Assembly: GCA_043803685.1 (NCBI GenBank)
Contig: JAZDJU010000104.1
Location: 1-16,559, forward strand
Reading direction: 5' to 3'
Length of the DNA: 16,559 nt
Source: Candidatus Omnitrophota bacterium
GTDB lineage: Bacteria; Omnitrophota; Omnitrophia; Omnitrophales; Aquincolibacteriaceae
Below, one piece after another: positions 5,234 through 16,227 of this stretch. The stretch's first letter is position 1. The number at the start of each line of letters is the position of its first letter. The notes under the pieces were generated by a model. The model did not search any database, was not told the DNA's origin, and was given only the letters and a program-made list of their open reading frames with translations. The position numbers were made by a program, and so were the translations under genes.

Positions 5234-5339
5234 TGCGGCCGGAGGGACTTGGCGCCTCCGTTACACTTCGGTCGGCCACCCGCACTTGTGAAACTGACCT
5301 TTGTCAGTTTCACGAACAAGTGCTCCCTTCAAGCCCTCC
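5234..5339 (-). repeat. tRNA-linked structured element, tRNA-Leu copy
   Basis: Ends in an exact copy of the last 18 nt of tRNA-Leu (5234-5251 = 5413-5430). Central hairpin GTGAAACTGAC-AAAG-GTCAGTTTCAC. Alignable with 13253-13358 and 15959-16066. Confidence 0.85.
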
Positions 5340-5412
5340 TACGATCAAGTGCGGTCACCGTACGCGGTACACTCAGAACCGCGACGGTGCCGTACTTTTG
5401 CATAGGCAAAAG

Positions 5413-5494
5413 TGCGGCCGGAGGGACTTGAACCCCCATCCCTTTCGGGACAAGATCCTAAGTCTTGCGCGTCTGCCAGTTTCGCCACGGCCGC
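5413..5494 (-). tRNA. tRNA-Leu (TAG)
   Basis: GCGGCCG/CGGCCGC-A acceptor, anticodon arm CAAGA-CTTAGGA-TCTTG, long variable arm TCCCGAAAGGGA, T loop TTCAAGT. No encoded CCA. Confidence 0.96.
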
Positions 5495-5514: not shown

Positions 5515-5587
5515 TGCGCCCTGAAGGAGTTGAACCTTCGACCCAGTGATTAAGAGTCACTTGCTCTACCAACTGAGCTAAGGGCGC
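5515..5587 (-). tRNA. tRNA-Lys (CTT)
   Basis: GCGCCCT/AGGGCGC-A acceptor, anticodon arm AGTGA-CTCTTAA-TCACT, T arm GAAGG-TTCAACT-CCTTC. No encoded CCA. Confidence 0.96.
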
Positions 5588-5825
5588 ATGAAATCCGTTT
5601 TAGGCAAGAACGTCCGTGTCCTGATTTCAAAAACTTTTCACGTCGTTGTGCCGACTTTTTGTCTTCGAACGGCTCGTTATGAATCAATTCCAAAGGTCCA
5701 TTTTGCCGTGACCATTGAGATGAGCCGCTATGATGCTGCCGCAAACGCTCTTCAGGAGCTTTGCTTGTTAAACCAACATAATGCTTGCCGTTTTTTAGAC
5801 TCCTTAACACATAAACATAAAACAT
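5550..5825 (-). CDS. Small stand-alone GIY-YIG nuclease family protein (91 aa); 3' end overlaps tRNA-Lys
   Basis: MFYVYVLRS...HYVGLT...ERLRQH...AQRREKFLKSGHGR matches the GIY-YIG Y-Y-G, Arg, His and Glu pattern. AGAGGT precedes the ATG at 5825. Confidence 0.85.
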   Translation of the reverse strand: MFYVYVLRSLKNGKHYVGLTSKAPEERLRQHHSGSSQWSRQNGPLELIHNEPFEDKKSAQRREKFLKSGHGRSCLKRISCALSSVGRASDS

Positions 5826-5831
5826 ATCGAC

Positions 5832-5904
5832 CTCTACCCCCGCCAAAATGCTTGGCGGGTCCGCCACGTTTTATGGCGGAAACTGAGCTAAGGGCGCATG
5901 AAAT
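5832..5904 (-). repeat. Duplicated 5' end of tRNA-Lys interrupted by two 21-nt hairpins
   Basis: 5881-5904 is identical to 5571-5594 (24 bp). The tRNA D-loop continuation GGTAGAG resumes at 5832-5838 after tccgccataaaacgtggcgga and cccgccaagcattttggcggg (minus strand). Confidence 0.85.
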
Positions 5905-6168: not shown

Positions 6169-6621
6169 TTATCTCATTTTCGCTTCTTCATCTTTTGCTG
6201 GTTTAATTTTAAGTGGCCGCAAGCCTATTTCCTTCCAATAAGCCGCCACTTTTTCTTCGAAATAATCCCCATCTTCAGCAACAACTAACCCGTCCGCTCT
6301 TAACGCTGTAGCAACATAGCATCTATCATCAGGATCAAAGCCAAGAATATCCAACCTGTCTTCTACTGCATTTTCAATATTAGAAGAACGATACTCAACA
6401 TGCCCTGCGTTGTGTATTATTTTAGTGTACCAAGCTTGCAGTAGTGGGCTAGCATTAAACACAGGTCTATATTTTCCTAAGAGTTTTTCTTCGAAATCAA
6501 AAACGATTTGATGATAATCATAAATTAAATCAATTAGCACCAAGGCTTGATGGCATAAATCCCCTTGGCGCAAATCACATGCCGTCTTAAATACATTTTC
6601 ATCAAGAACCCATTTCGCCAT
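6169..6621 (-). CDS. PIN-domain-like protein (putative ribonuclease)
   Basis: N-terminal WVLDENV, central DPDDRCYVATA and VVAEDGDY give the acidic residue pattern of PIN folds. Starts immediately after the ATPase stop codon. Confidence 0.7.
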   Translation of the reverse strand: MAKWVLDENVFKTACDLRQGDLCHQALVLIDLIYDYHQIVFDFEEKLLGKYRPVFNASPLLQAWYTKIIHNAGHVEYRSSNIENAVEDRLDILGFDPDDRCYVATALRADGLVVAEDGDYFEEKVAAYWKEIGLRPLKIKPAKDEEAKMR

Positions 6622-7974
6622 TTAAGCCCGTTCTTTTTGTTTTAATTTTTCGGCTATTAATCGACTATGGACCAATGCTTCCAGATAATCTTCTTGGAAA
6701 AAACCTTCCGGCCAATTTTCAAATTGCCCAAGCTCATTAATATAAATTCTTTTGGGTAATGTGTTTTCAGCTTCGGGGGAAAAGTAATAGATAGCCAAAT
6801 CATCTTTTGTGAAAGTCTTACCTTCAACGACTCGTCGAGCTAATCTTGAAAGTAAATGTTCGCTGTGCGTTTCAACGATAATGCGTCTACCTTGTCCCGC
6901 CAATTCGATAAATAAATCCCCTAAATCCGCTTGCACTTTTGGATGAAGGTGAATTTCCGGTTGTTCTATAAAAAGAGATGAATCTGGCCGAGAATAAAAT
7001 CCCTCTACGATAAGCGGTAAAACCTGAGAAACGCCAAAACCAACATCATTGATAGTTGCATCAATGGCCGTTTTAAGATTTCGAATGATTAATTGAAAAA
7101 AACCTGTCTGCCGCTGCCTACCTAGCGGCTTGAGCTTAATAGAAGAACCGAGCCCGAATTGTTGAATCCAATGATTCACTCTCTTTAAGAGCAGCTTATC
7201 TTTTCTTGACCCTTGGCTTTGAGCCCATAGCACATCTGTCGCATACTCGCCTTTAAGGCCAACATCCTTTCGCAACTCTCCTCCGCTCACATATAAGGTT
7301 TTAGGGTTTTCTCGAAGAGGGCCTATGTAATTGATATTATTAATAAATTCTTCCACGAGCTGTTGAATTACAAAAGCTACTTTTTGCGCTTCCCAAGGGA
7401 TCCTTCGAGCTCTTCCAATCATCGATGGGCTTATGCCGTAAAACTTAAAAGGCGCGACCCTCAAAACATGTTTTAAAAATTCCCCGGATAAACTTTTTCG
7501 TTCATTTCGATACGAGATAGTTGCCTGATATTTTACGCCTCGCTTTAATTTGACGCGCTCTAGATAAATAGATTCATCTAAAAAGCTAATTTCAGCCGAA
7601 TTAAGCTCTGTTCTTTTTTGAAACTTATTGTAAACAAATTGTGTTTTAACTTTACAGTCTCCTTCTTTTAGATCTTTCAAACCCCCAACGAATGGATTTT
7701 TCCCAAAAAATGTAAAATCAACACCAAGCAGTTTCGTCAGATCATGTTTGTAGATAAAGCTCTCGTAGGTAGAGAGCTTAACGTAGGACCCATTCACCAC
7801 TAAAGGGCTGGTAACATCCCGGCTATCCACCGTTTGCTTTAACATTAAGAAGGGCTGCAGCAAACTACTCTTTCCAGAGGAATTTGGCCCTATGAGAATA
7901 GTGATAGGCTTAATCTCTAATTCTTGGGTATCACTAAAACTTTTGAAATTGGTCAATTTAATTTGTTTTAACAT
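6622..7974 (-). CDS. AAA_15/AAA_21-type (ABC-like) ATPase with DUF3696-like C-terminus
   Basis: LTNFKSF, Walker A GPNSSGKS, signature VGFGVSQVLP, Walker B/D-loop FIEQPEIHLHP, ETHSEH, C-terminal GQFENWPEGFF. Confidence 0.85.
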   Translation of the reverse strand: MLKQIKLTNFKSFSDTQELEIKPITILIGPNSSGKSSLLQPFLMLKQTVDSRDVTSPLVVNGSYVKLSTYESFIYKHDLTKLLGVDFTFFGKNPFVGGLKDLKEGDCKVKTQFVYNKFQKRTELNSAEISFLDESIYLERVKLKRGVKYQATISYRNERKSLSGEFLKHVLRVAPFKFYGISPSMIGRARRIPWEAQKVAFVIQQLVEEFINNINYIGPLRENPKTLYVSGGELRKDVGLKGEYATDVLWAQSQGSRKDKLLLKRVNHWIQQFGLGSSIKLKPLGRQRQTGFFQLIIRNLKTAIDATINDVGFGVSQVLPLIVEGFYSRPDSSLFIEQPEIHLHPKVQADLGDLFIELAGQGRRIIVETHSEHLLSRLARRVVEGKTFTKDDLAIYYFSPEAENTLPKRIYINELGQFENWPEGFFQEDYLEALVHSRLIAEKLKQKERA

Positions 7975-8031
7975 AATGAATTAATGCCTCTTGATTATTG
8001 CATGTATTCTTTAGCTGCAAGTTAGACGCAT

Positions 8032-8061
8032 AAAAAAACGGTTCCCCCTTTAAGAGAACCG
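8032..8061 (-). terminator. Intrinsic terminator downstream of the HEPN-like gene
   Basis: Minus strand CGGTTCTCTTAAAGGGGGAACCG followed by 7 T. Confidence 0.7.
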
Positions 8062-8174
8062 CCTTCAATAATTCAAAATTCAAGACGCCCTTCAGGGCTT
8101 TTATTGCTGGGTAGTATAGACCTCCGTTTTATTTGAAGCCAGCTAGAAAGCAAGGCAAGGGAATAAAGACAAAA

Positions 8175-9242
8175 CTAGACTGACGCCCTGCTCTCTTTCA
8201 TTCTCTCAACCTGCTCTTCAATGGCCGCATCGAGTGCACCAGTTGCCTCGCCGATTAACTCCTCGAGAGGTTCGAATTCTTTTTCCAATTGTGCAAAAAA
8301 GGCAAATAATTTCAGCTTGTCCTTTTTCTTCTCTATCGTTTGCGCTCTTTTTTCCAAACTGCTCAAAAAAGAGGCCCTGTAAAGTGGTTTGTATTCCATA
8401 AGTTGCTTCTTAAAATCTTTTATGGGCTTCTTGCCAACAACATCTTGGAAAAACTGGACTCTCTTCAAAGCTTCATCGGGAGAACACTCCTCAGCGCCAC
8501 CCCGACTCAAGTATTCAAGCTGTTCCACTGAATTACTAATTCGTTCAAGCAGATGTTCTTTAAGCCCAACGGCTAAATCTTTTATCCCTATCTCAATGCC
8601 ATTTTTCAGAAAAACACTTACCTGCGAATATTCTCTTTCTCTTTCATTGAGAAAGTAAAAGTTGTTCTTCTTCAATCCCAGCCTTTTCCTAAATTCCTTT
8701 ATTCTGTCAGCCTCACCGCTACTCATTGAGAGCCCCCCCGAGTTAGTCGATAGGGCTACAAATAAATCGCAGATAATTTCATAAAGAATCAGAGTTGAAT
8801 ACTTAAGAGTTTCTTTCCGCACATAGTCACGATGATAAATTTCGTTTCGATAAAGATGAATCGCATTAAGAACAGCGGCAACCTCTTCGGGTATTATTTT
8901 TTCTTTCGCTGAAAGCTCCCTTATTTTTTCTCCGGAAAGAAAGTTCACTTTTTCGTGAAAATAGCTATTTATTCGTTTCTTTTCGCCAGAGCTAATAACC
9001 TTTTCCTTTAAACTAGAATAAAATCTTCGACTTTGCTCATCCCTAAATTCTACGGGAGAAACTTTGAGCATTCTCTCGTACATATCAGCATGACGCATTG
9101 CCGACTTAATAGTCCTGAACATCATAATTTCAACAGCGTTGTCTAACAAAAGCAAAGCCATTCGCAGGTCGGATTCCGCCCCTCTCAGAATCAGGCTTTT
9201 TGAATGCTCTATCTGTTCAACGATTTGAATAATGCGTTTCAT
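8175..9242 (-). CDS. Hypothetical protein with HEPN-like N-terminal domain
   Basis: 355-aa mostly helical ORF with ALLLLDNAVE and an R-x4-H motif (YRNEIYH). Confidence 0.6.
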   Translation of the reverse strand: MKRIIQIVEQIEHSKSLILRGAESDLRMALLLLDNAVEIMMFRTIKSAMRHADMYERMLKVSPVEFRDEQSRRFYSSLKEKVISSGEKKRINSYFHEKVNFLSGEKIRELSAKEKIIPEEVAAVLNAIHLYRNEIYHRDYVRKETLKYSTLILYEIICDLFVALSTNSGGLSMSSGEADRIKEFRKRLGLKKNNFYFLNEREREYSQVSVFLKNGIEIGIKDLAVGLKEHLLERISNSVEQLEYLSRGGAEECSPDEALKRVQFFQDVVGKKPIKDFKKQLMEYKPLYRASFLSSLEKRAQTIEKKKDKLKLFAFFAQLEKEFEPLEELIGEATGALDAAIEEQVERMKESRASV

Positions 9243-9613
9243 AATTGTCTAGAATAATACACCTCTAAGGGCTAAAAAGGTACTCTGAGTCACAGACTCC
9301 TCTAATCGATAGATTCCCACAGTCGATAGGTCGTAGCTCGAAATAAGCAATTTTGCTAATAAAGACCCCCCTACCCTGTAAAAATGAACGTTCTGACAGT
9401 TGTAATCATCGAGAAAAGACGGAGCATCTGACAGACAATCACTTGCTCTCTTTAAAGAAGGCATGAATGGATCGTTCTAAGCTACTGCGGATACAACGGT
9501 TAGAGCGGTGGTGTTTTCTGCGGATAACTGCGGAAGTACTTGCGGTGTCAGATGGGTGTCAAATTTCTCATTAAGTCGCTGAACAGCGTCCGGTTTCCGG
9601 TTTTACCCGCAAG

Positions 9614-9688
9614 AAAGGTGCCGCGCGGCACCTTTTCAAAAAAGGCTCGAGCCCCCTGAACGCAATTTCCTCCATCTGGAGGAAATTG
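9614..9688. other. Two strong palindromes (possible terminators or protein-binding sites)
   Basis: Perfect 22-bp palindrome aaaggtgccgcgcggcaccttt (9614-9635) and caatttcctcca-tc-tggaggaaattg (9663-9688), downstream of the antitoxin gene. Confidence 0.55.
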
Positions 9689-9779
9689 ATAAACAGCCGC
9701 TGGCGAATATTCTGGGTGGTCCTGGTAGAAGTCAACGAAGCGCGTCCGGTTTACGTTGGGGCCGCGCAGCCGGTTCGTG

Positions 9780-10079
9780 TTACTTCTTCGAAACGGCCTT
9801 GAACTGGATCCCGGCGAGATGAAGAAGCAGCAGGATATTCCCGAACCCTGGATTTCCGTTCCCGGAAAGCATTTTATAGAGACTCACCCGGTTGATCTTG
9901 CTTGTCTTCGACATCCGGGTCATGCCTCCGCGCGCCTCGATCACATTCCGGAGCGCCATCAGGAACGCCTTCTTGTCCCCCGCCTCAAGCGCCGCGTTCA
10001 AATACCCCGATGCCGCTTCAGGATCCTTCAGATATTTCATTAAAAATTCATGATGACTTACCGACGGCGGAACTTTCAT
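9780..10079 (-). CDS. Addiction module antidote protein (HigA-like HTH antitoxin, HI1420-like)
   Basis: YLKDPEAASGYLNAALE...FLMALRNVIEARGGMT...NRVSLYKMLSGNGNP; directly downstream of the toxin. Confidence 0.9.
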   Translation of the reverse strand: MKVPPSVSHHEFLMKYLKDPEAASGYLNAALEAGDKKAFLMALRNVIEARGGMTRMSKTSKINRVSLYKMLSGNGNPGFGNILLLLHLAGIQFKAVSKK

Positions 10080-10089
10080 AGTTTGCTCC

Positions 10090-10413
10090 CTATTTTCTCC
10101 TTAAATAATCCATCCAATATGCACGAGCTCTGCGAATGTCACCCTCTTGCGTCGACTTATCGCCGCCGCATAACAGGATCACGAGCGTACGACCGTCTAG
10201 ACCGAAATAAACACGGTAACCAGGACCAAAATGGAACCGGAGTTCCCAGATCCCTGTATCGACAAGCTTTGTATCCCCAAAATTGCCTGTCAACAACCGG
10301 TCACAACGCGTCAGGATCCTTGATTGGATCCGTCTATCGCTTAGAGCAAGCAGCCATTCCTCGAAAGGCTGCTTCCCTTCCGATGAACAGTAATAACGGA
10401 CCTCGCGGATCAC
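10090..10413 (-). CDS. Addiction module killer protein (RelE/ParE/HigB-type toxin, HI1419-like)
   Basis: PFEEWL, GNFGDTK, GIWELRFHFGPGYRVYF, LLCGGDKSTQ. Start inferred at GTG 10413 behind GGGGA. Confidence 0.9.
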   Translation of the reverse strand: MIREVRYYCSSEGKQPFEEWLLALSDRRIQSRILTRCDRLLTGNFGDTKLVDTGIWELRFHFGPGYRVYFGLDGRTLVILLCGGDKSTQEGDIRRARAYWMDYLRRK

Positions 10414-10454
10414 CGGAAGATCCCCGCGTACGGTCGACCGGACCTTCGTTGAAG

Positions 10455-10495
10455 AAAATAGCGCATCATCCCTCACCTGTCAACTATAGTTTACA
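10455..10495 (-). promoter_or_regulatory. Toxin-antitoxin promoter with overlapping palindromic operator
   Basis: Minus strand TTGACA - 17 nt - TATTTT. The near-perfect palindrome tgtcaactatagtttaca (10478-10495) overlaps the -35. Confidence 0.6.
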
Positions 10496-13154: not shown

Positions 13155-13244
13155 ACGCCAGGCATGACTTGAACACGCAACCCTCAGCTCCTTCGCCAAA
13201 GGCGAATCGGTCCATCGACGGATTCGCCTCATGAGGAGAAGGCT
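13155..13244 (-). pseudogene. tRNA-Arg-like 3' half with a hairpin insertion at the anticodon loop
   Basis: Minus strand AGCCTTC[46-nt insert]GGAGCTGAGGGTTGC matches tRNA-Arg, then a pairable T arm GCGTG-TTCAAGT-CATGC. Confidence 0.6.
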
Positions 13245-13252
13245 TTAAAAAT

Positions 13253-13358
13253 TGCGCCCGGCAGGAGTCGCCGCCTTCCACTTCGTTTCAGGTCGGGCAC
13301 CCGCCCTAAAAACATGACATACGTCATGTTTTAATTCAGGGCTCCCTTCGACCCCGGC
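13253..13358 (-). repeat. tRNA-linked structured element, tRNA-Arg copy
   Basis: Ends in a 16/18 match to the tRNA-Arg 3' end. Hairpin AAAACATGAC-GTAT-GTCATGTTTT. Shares GAAGGGAGC and GCGGGTG.CCGACC with the Leu copy. Confidence 0.85.
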
Positions 13359-13371
13359 GCAAAAAAAATAG

Positions 13372-13445
13372 TGCGCCCAGCAGGGGTCGAACCTGCAACC
13401 CTCAGCTCCGAAGGCTGATGCTCTATCCAGTTGAGCTATGGGCGC
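13372..13445 (-). tRNA. tRNA-Arg (TCG)
   Basis: GCGCCCA/TGGGCGC-A acceptor, anticodon arm TCAGC-CTTCGGA-GCTGA, T arm GCAGG-TTCGACC-CCTGC. No encoded CCA. Confidence 0.96.
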
Positions 13446-13550
13446 AAAAGCATTTTCATTATTTCAACGACGGCCAGCTGAGATCTATTTAAAAAGCATG
13501 CCCTACACTTTCCGGCTTCGCCTTCAAGTGCGGCTCACTTCGTTCGCTCG

Positions 13551-13624
13551 TCCAGTTGTCCGTCTTGCCTCAGGGCAAGGACGGATCCGTCCCCGCCCAA
13601 AGCGGGGCGGAAGCTACGGGCGCA
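13551..13624 (-). repeat. Duplicated 5' end of tRNA-Arg interrupted by two TCCG...CGGA hairpins
   Basis: Minus strand GCGCCCGTAGCT[53-nt insert, 13559-13611]CAACTGGA versus tRNA GCGCCCATAGCTCAACTGGA. Confidence 0.8.
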
Positions 13625-15833: not shown

Positions 15834-15906
15834 GGGCAGGTAGCTCAGTCGGTAGAGCAAGGGACTGAAAATCCCTGTGTCGGGGGTTCAATTCCCTCCC
15901 TGCCCA
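15834..15906 (+). tRNA. tRNA-Phe (GAA)
   Basis: GGGCAGG/CCTGCCC-A acceptor, anticodon arm AGGGA-CTGAAAA-TCCCT, T arm GGGGG-TTCAATT-CCCTC. No encoded CCA. Confidence 0.96.
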
Positions 15907-16227
15907 ACTTTCTATTCAAAGATTTATAAGAAAGTTGGACTACCCTCTTAATCCCTAAGGAGGGAATTGAAAAGAGCTCTTGTTTGCAAATATGACTTAC
16001 GTCATATTTGTGAGAGCGAGTGGCCGACCGTAGCGTGAGCGAAGGCGCCAATTCCCTCCCTGCCCAACTTTCTATTCAAAGATTTATAAGAAAGTTGGAC
16101 TACCCTCTTAATCCCTAAGGAGGGAATTGAAGAGAGCTCTTGTTTGCAAATATGACTTACGTCATATTTGTGAGAGCGAGTGGCCGACCGTAGCGTGAGC
16201 GAAGGCGCCAATTCCCTCCCTGCCCAA
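15889..16227 (+). repeat. 160-bp tandem repeat (2 units + 19 bp) anchored on the tRNA-Phe 3' end; each unit holds one structured element (15959-16066, 16119-16226)
   Basis: caattccctccctgcccaa at 15889, 16049 and 16209. The units differ at one position that I could see (15972 A vs 16132 G). Confidence 0.95.

Follow-up and report, generated by a model that had tools for sequence, protein, structure and literature searches.

What is a segment of DNA antisense to the T-arm of a tRNA doing directly behind the gene for that very tRNA? The question arises at one end of the 16,559-nt stretch of Omnitrophota DNA analysed here (the window), which carries five tRNA genes, and in which the gene for tRNA-Phe is followed by two tandem repeats, each containing such a segment. 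The original prediction for this locus offered two readings, one of a target-programmed guide or recombination end, the other of a folding switch that gates tRNA maturation.

The Repeats of the Window

The target gene, tRNA-Phe(GAA), occupies positions 15834..15906 of the plus strand, with T54 at 15887 and the junction T55|C56 at 15888|15889, and its positions T54 to C66 (15887-15899) read TTCAATTCCCTCC. The first repeat unit, 160 nt in length (15889..16048, plus strand), is composed of tRNA positions 56-73, a locus-specific spacer of 52 nt with hairpins (15907..15958), the antisense arm (15959..15971), and a conserved core of 77 nt, made of a long hairpin, P2, and a short hairpin, P3 (15972..16048). 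A direct duplicate of tRNA-Phe 56-73 follows (16049..16066), opening the second unit (16049..16208; arm at 16119-16131 and core at 16132-16208), and the array closes with a final duplicate of the same tRNA positions (16209..16226), all of these on the plus strand. The two units are direct repeats, 99% alike, with a single difference at 15972. The arm, GGAGGGAATTGAA in each unit, is the exact reverse complement of tRNA-Phe 54-66, as had been predicted, and within the window reverse-complement matches to TTCAATTCCCTCC are found only at the two arms. The alternative pairing proposed for the arm, of 11 bp with the downstream duplicate, is also there, at 16049-16059. Two more copies lie on the minus strand, one (5234..5339; arm 5339-5328, core 5327-5252, duplicate 5251-5234) behind its target tRNA-Leu(TAG) (5413..5494, minus), and one (13253..13358; arm 13358-13347, core 13346-13271, duplicate 13270-13253) behind its target tRNA-Arg(TCG) (13372..13445, minus), and their arms match as claimed, with a one-base gap for Leu and at 11 of 12 positions for Arg. 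What did not stand is the placement of the arm at the 5' end of the element: the repeating unit (15889-16048) begins with the tRNA 3' piece, and the arm is internal. An Rfam scan of the window returned nothing but tRNAs above the gathering score.

The tRNA genes of the window have other neighbors. A small GIY-YIG gene (PF01541, UPF0213-like; 5553-5904, minus) is located between tRNA-Lys and an upstream copy of the 5' part of this tRNA, the D-loop of which is interrupted by a double hairpin. A similar GIY-YIG cassette precedes tRNA-Gln on contig C40, and another GIY-YIG gene follows tRNA-Gln on C129; at one further locus (L286, G036 C74:1-1800) a tRNA-Leu element is flanked on either side by GIY-YIG genes, which come after pairs of hairpins located behind tRNA 3' ends, and at another (L288) three GIY-YIG genes stand in tandem before tRNA-Gln. 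The flanks of tRNA-Arg (13156-13236 and about 13450-13620, minus) hold more hairpin modules in partial tRNA copies, one running from the anticodon arm to the 3' end downstream and one of the 5' end upstream. A second family of two-hairpin modules is found in spacers at 5347-5410 (minus) and behind Ser, Leu, and Gly tRNAs, as well as behind tRNAs without the core. Finally, a low-GC stretch (6169-10476, minus), encoding an AAA_15/AAA_21 ATPase, two proteins without a Pfam match, and a Gp49-like/HI1420 toxin-antitoxin-like pair, resembles a defence island adjoining the tRNA-Lys cluster.

Extent of the Family

With a profile built from five copies, nine copies are recognized in this genome, two behind tRNA-Phe, one each behind tRNAs for Leu, Arg, Val, Ser, and Ala, one behind a Pro(CGG)-like gene missed by ARAGORN, and one behind a 3' half of tRNA-Pro(TGG); the element is present at six of the 45 ARAGORN calls. 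A covariance model produced 198 matches in 33 of 41 relatives, and in the phylum matches were found in 52 of 121 genomes. The units are gene-less and approximately 100-200 nt long, and their targets comprise 31 tRNA types plus tmRNA, the copy behind the tmRNA gene (L158/L283) also possessing a cognate arm; some copies sit behind tRNA halves rather than whole genes. A pattern scan of GTDB genomes yielded 118 stretches, and the taxa named among the first 80 of these were mostly Omnitrophota, with a few Ratteibacteria, Vermiphilus, and Elusimicrobia and one planctomycete. A tRNA or tmRNA gene lies at most 300 nt upstream in 106 of 134 pattern matches. Two pattern hits (L209 and L214) lack the element anatomy and were treated as chance. 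For part of the 198 matches 80 regions were taken, giving, together with the earlier loci, 141 distinct hits, of which 116 have a tRNA within 600 nt; 110 were usable for the arm test, after 25 without a tRNA within 300 nt and six without an arm anchor were dropped. Viral contigs contained zero pattern matches, and the phages and plasmids searched gave no match either, so that these searches point to no vehicle of transfer.

The Antisense Arm is Cognate

In the 110 usable copies, representing 31 tRNA types, agreement between the arm and its own tRNA amounts to 7.8 of the nine positions 57-65 (positions 54-56 serve as the arm anchor and are excluded from the score), versus 5.51 ± 0.11 of nine for shuffled arm-tRNA pairs (5,000 shuffles; maximum 5.88). 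These counts overstate independence, because kin share arms, a problem lessened when only one copy per isoacceptor is considered (31 copies), in which case the match is 7.71 versus 5.36, with none of 20,000 shuffles as high. Such a comparison across many copies was what the original prediction called for, along with the proviso that generic T-arm similarity would undo it. Non-cognate pairs do match at 5.5 of nine positions, because T-arms share TTCRANYC, and the near-identity of the two Phe units, which differ at only 1 nt, might be taken for an artefact of assembly. However, none of the shuffles in either test reaches the observed match, which refutes generic similarity as its source, and tandem arrays are present at eight loci, that of Phe and seven others, with cores that covary; we give explanations of this kind hardly any credence.

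The match is nevertheless imperfect in a third of the copies, as the cognate word is the best or tied-best among 44 distinct words in only 76 of the 110. When scored against the 44 T-arms of this genome, the Phe and Arg arms have their top score with their own tRNA alone, and the Leu arm, scored ungapped, ties with nine other T-arms and is exceeded by one. Identity of the reverse-complemented arm to the tRNA amounts to 92-98% at positions 57-62, then 76, 71, and 65% at positions 63, 64, and 65, 52% at position 66, and background from position 68, the match declining beyond position 65-66; in 131 of 173 copies, perfect pairing counted from position 54 extends over 9-14 nt. Arm identities at positions 57 and 59, which are variable, are 95 and 93% to the own tRNA versus 45 and 24% to other tRNAs. 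Even within one tRNA type the arm tracks minority tRNA alleles, in 32 of 46 cases, and where tRNA and duplicate are discordant (21 copies), the arm agrees with the tRNA at 33 sites, with the duplicate at five, and with neither at four.

Ends, Duplicates, and Distribution

When the core is placed by motifs of its own, 158 of the 169 anchored copies have an arm that extends 2 nt past the first base of the duplicate, and the arm thus covers the target on both sides of T55|C56; the 11 copies without this offset include seven misplaced anchors and four odd or false copies. Seven of the 158, forming one lineage at Lys(TTT), have both ends moved by one tRNA-matching base, the arm gaining the complement of G53 and the duplicate starting at T55, with the offset preserved. 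At the other end, tRNA and duplicate are 95-100% identical up to and including position 73, with a fall to 60% at position 74, as measured in the 80 of 90 copies preselected for a match of at least 13 of 16 at positions 57-72; in 18 of the 90 copies the duplicate differs from the tRNA at positions 57-66. A comparison between genomes at one locus shows a likeness of 0.72 for the 20 nt after the tRNA, 0.51 for those after the duplicate, and 0.44 for the background. In 84 copies from 18 genomes, the grouping of units follows tRNA type rather than genome (spacer 0.67 vs 0.42, core P2 0.735 vs 0.70), and the Phe spacer of the window resembles those found behind tRNA-Phe elsewhere in the genus. Homogenisation of cores within a genome is ruled out, same-genome pairs being no closer than background. 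Among 14 orthologous Phe loci in the genus, five possess the full element, and one possesses an arm-only remnant, as read by eye. Taken together, these ends and this distribution suggest a minimal kind of integrative element, one that arrives with its own tRNA end and spacer.

Some individual loci deserve mention. Behind a tRNA-Ser (TGA) gene of this genome (L005, G000 C100) the arm is cognate at 13 of 13 positions, and the downstream piece departs from the tRNA after position 62. An exact antisense match of 5-6 nt to the acceptor end, visible by eye in the spacers of some loci, occurs in 11 of 94 copies, the shuffled maximum also being 11, and is not supported as a general feature.

The Core Fold

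The core, of about 77 nt, folds into two hairpins, and the helix formed by the arm completes a three-way junction. The alignment of 127 distinct copies, itself fitted to the model, has 92.5% paired cells, and 26 of its 31 pairs change on both sides, exceeding all 500 shuffles and every slid control. On the tRNA-sense strand P2 is strand-polar, with 259 G-T versus 27 A-C, and the arm helix is without wobble bias (39 G-T vs 48 A-C). The loops of P3, as parsed in 114 copies by a finder that favoured short loops, include 78 triloops (65 of them GNA), 12 tetraloops, 19 longer loops, and five unclassified, C(GAA)G being present in 44 of the 114. Sequences of the GCGNAGC and GCGNNAGC types are described as very stable DNA mini-hairpins, the RNA version tested being much weaker (PMC13037366, as far as its accessible text goes). 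Because of these GNA mini-hairpin loops, we infer that the core fold may act in single-stranded DNA. The Phe copies of the window have a GTGA tetraloop, compatible with both RNA and DNA, and sequence is said in the accessible part of PMC5737381 to hardly separate DNA from RNA motifs on its own.

A New Family of a Known Class

Gene-less units behind tRNA genes have a long history in E. coli. There the tRNA-linked repeats (TLRs), known since 1978, number one to five per locus, and each terminates in 18-19 bp that repeat the 3' end of the RNA gene upstream; up to 2021 no function had been assigned to them, according to the accessible text of PMC8144298 (in which Egan and Landy, 1978 and Rudd, 1999 are the earlier works cited). 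They include the 178-bp repeats of tyrT-tyrV, or RtT RNA (Rfam RF00391). The Omnitrophota units are likewise located directly behind tRNA genes, one to several per locus, and their 18-nt duplicate (positions 56-73), 95-100% identical at positions 57-73 in 80 of 90 copies, falls within the 18-19 bp of the E. coli class. Of the four E. coli regions compared, those of Tyr, Lys, and Pro hold units with an arm and valW is without a unit. The E. coli arms are also cognate and antisense (Tyr 59-68, 10 of 10; Lys 59-66, seven of eight; Pro, six of eight), those of Tyr and Pro having GAA in register with positions 54-56, and hairpins with GNA loops are present in the E. coli units; in the Rfam consensus structure of RtT, the arm is paired with the duplicate. 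The antisense arm is therefore already present in E. coli TLRs, a fact that the original prediction had overlooked.

The two groups differ in the start of the duplicate (C56 in Omnitrophota versus 58-59 in E. coli), in the core (two hairpins versus the larger multibranch fold of RtT), and in their targets, the 31 tRNA types and tmRNA seen here not extending to 5S rRNA, as they do in E. coli. With membership set at a score of at least 45 bits, RtT is rejected, its best match in the genome having an E value of 7.5 and the family model scoring 7.5 bits at most on RtT units. C4 antisense RNA has a three-stem junction of a size similar to that of the Omnitrophota element. It is rejected under the same threshold of at least 45 bits, as RF01695 has no match in the genome at E≤10 and none in the window. 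As the core matches neither RtT nor C4, the Omnitrophota repeats form, within the TLR class, a new family distinct from RtT; the class itself is not new. As a side observation, four other loci (L006, G000 C49, behind tRNA-Glu; L024; L038; L197) display unrelated cores in the same layout of antisense arm plus duplicate behind tRNA genes, and thus several families of the class coexist. A search of the literature, covering main texts and few subscription papers, returned nothing on this family, on a cognate antisense arm, or on a mechanism of TLR mobility, and the accessible text of PMC3733652 has nothing on such repeats; the supplements of PMC8144298, PMC5737381, and 10.1101/2024.07.17.603846 could bear on novelty.

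Parallels with mobile elements are also apparent. In genomic islands at tRNA and tmRNA genes the target is likewise split and restored by an element-borne fragment, with the displaced fragment marking the far end, as in the Omnitrophota units (Islander; PMC4383910, accessible text). Unlike the islands, these units measure only about 100-200 nt, have no integrase, carry an inverted copy of the target inside, and form tandem arrays. Another parallel is IS608, which is not known to make a target duplication and encodes TnpA; the Omnitrophota units, in contrast, are without a linked Y1 transposase, all three Y1_Tnp genes of this genome (Y1 HUH) being on contigs without a copy of the element, and in this they differ from IS200/IS605 derivatives and REP/RAYT. 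The single-strand transposons of the IS200-IS605 group, IS608 among them, rely on hairpin DNA and on target choice by base pairing, as the units may do, natural IS608 reading 4 nt and engineered IS608 reading 12-17 nt, the length of the arm (accessible text of PMC5934647). A third parallel is SegB of phage T4, which reads a tRNA T-loop motif, leaves 2-nt 3' overhangs, and drives tandem amplification of tRNA loci, but cuts near CCA (PMC2330249 and PMC13096335, in their accessible parts); the local GIY-YIG proteins are UPF0213-like, of about 80-90 aa, and encoded outside the units.

A Gene-Less Integrative Element?

The reading to which we lean, with a little more confidence than doubt, is that the tRNA-linked repeat is a gene-less integrative element acting on single-stranded DNA, the arm being its recombination end or guide. 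In the mechanism we propose, the unit would leave its locus as a small circle, its arm base-paired to the tRNA piece carried along. The terminal GAA of the arm would then pair with TTC (54-56) of the target, the remainder exchanging onto positions 57-65, with cleavage and joining at T55|C56 by a putative trans-acting enzyme. The tRNA would be restored by the carried piece, and the old 3' end of the host, displaced, would become the duplicate; for this reason each lineage would keep to a single tRNA type. Only rarely would a new arm appear, copied from the other strand of a new target. The guide or recombination end of the original prediction gains support from sequence comparisons, in that the arm is cognate, tracks tRNA substitutions, and would span the point of insertion, and the duplicate ends in an att-like manner; an arm that follows its tRNA is, however, also expected from plain decay of the duplicate.

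As to the enzyme, its gene is not present inside any unit examined. The small GIY-YIG nucleases encoded near these tRNAs are weak candidates: such genes are frequent beside the tRNAs in question, but GIY-YIG hits occur at eight of 139 loci, outside the unit in the loci inspected, and across 20 genomes the number of elements is not significantly related to the count of GIY-YIG genes (rho 0.34, p 0.14) or of Y1 transposases (rho 0.16, p 0.50). As to circles, raised coverage of E. coli tyrT/rttR is reported in a mobilome preprint, the accessible text of which attributes raised coverage of RNA genes to RNA/DNA hybrids and not to circles (10.1101/2024.07.17.603846). In the sequencing runs considered here, none of which contains this organism, the best share of words was 0.07, and four runs gave almost only tRNAs of other organisms, with no read across a circle or junction.

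An explanation at the level of RNA, close to the maturation switch of the original prediction, would have the arm capture the real T-arm in the precursor while the duplicate pairs with the 5' half of the tRNA, resulting in a fold that resembles a tRNA and extrudes the unit from the T-loop, and either tuning maturation or releasing an RtT-like small RNA. Equilibrium folding is favorable to it: arm:tRNA pairing exceeds 0.5 in 64 of 90 modelled precursors, the probability of the native T-stem falls from 0.65 to 0.08, the swapped fold has the lower predicted energy in 80 of 86, and in 74 of 86 the 5' half is paired with the duplicate, which completes the acceptor stem; selection on this latter pairing would also account for an identity that stops at position 73. 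TLRs of E. coli located behind 5S rRNA are, moreover, transcribed and processed (PMC8144298, accessible text), and one relative's contig in an RNA library, on which a tRNA-Phe is joined to an arm and part of a core, may derive from a transcript. The energy model, however, omits tertiary contacts of the tRNA, modifications, and folding order, and DNA parameters give the same swap, in 67 of 90, which would then represent an intermediate of strand exchange. Further points against such a role are the DNA-type GNA triloops at P3, the arm helix without wobble bias, the patchy presence of the element (five of 14 orthologous Phe loci in the genus), its occurrence at only six of 45 ARAGORN calls in this genome, duplicates differing from the tRNA at positions 57-66 in 18 of 90 copies, and the persistence of copies behind tRNA halves. 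We consider this explanation unlikely. The interpretation offered by the original prediction is partly supported, its observation having been confirmed.

It is also conceivable, if improbable in our judgment, that the arm is a scar rather than a guide. In that case a staggered break in the T-loop, with a 2-nt 3' overhang, would once have been capped by the core, and the arm would be the complementary strand captured on that occasion, with no role beyond closing the stem of the junction; units would be gained and lost in place through host recombination between the 18-bp repeats. The fixed 2-nt offset, preserved in the shifted Lys(TTT) lineage, is as expected from such a cap, and SegB, a GIY-YIG enzyme, offers a precedent in its 2-nt 3' overhangs and its recognition of a T-loop motif, although its cut is placed after CCA and not in the loop (PMC2330249, accessible text). 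One arm (L303) is perfect over 18 nt, and arm mismatches are without a wobble preference (A-C at 35 of 391 C sites, G-U at 24 of 270 U sites). On the other hand, perfect pairing peaks at 9-14 nt (131 of 173) with no fall with spacer length (rho 0.00), arms follow later substitutions in the tRNA (32 of 46), and the sharp drop in identity at 73|74 is not predicted by duplication in place. The two processes are compatible, and capture of a strand may be what gives rise to new arms within the integrative element that we prefer.

Implications

A broader proposal, tentative and one that we hold with more doubt than confidence, is that TLRs in general may be cross-phylum, gene-less, DNA-guided elements of about 100-200 nt, the 10-14-nt arm of which reads a tRNA gene across a cut site in the T-loop and is rewritten from the target strand when a new tRNA is captured, making them a long-guide, reprogrammable counterpart of IS608, run by a host or GIY-YIG enzyme. 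What the Omnitrophota family contributes is more than 100 copies on 31 tRNA types plus tmRNA, enough for rules to be read from sequence: the arm is cognate, it overhangs T55|C56 by a constant 2 nt, identity ends at position 73 in att-like fashion, and the loops are of the DNA type. These rules are testable in E. coli, whose repeats possess the arm too, and if the arm is a guide, this would imply a base-pair-programmed DNA insertion reaction of a new kind.
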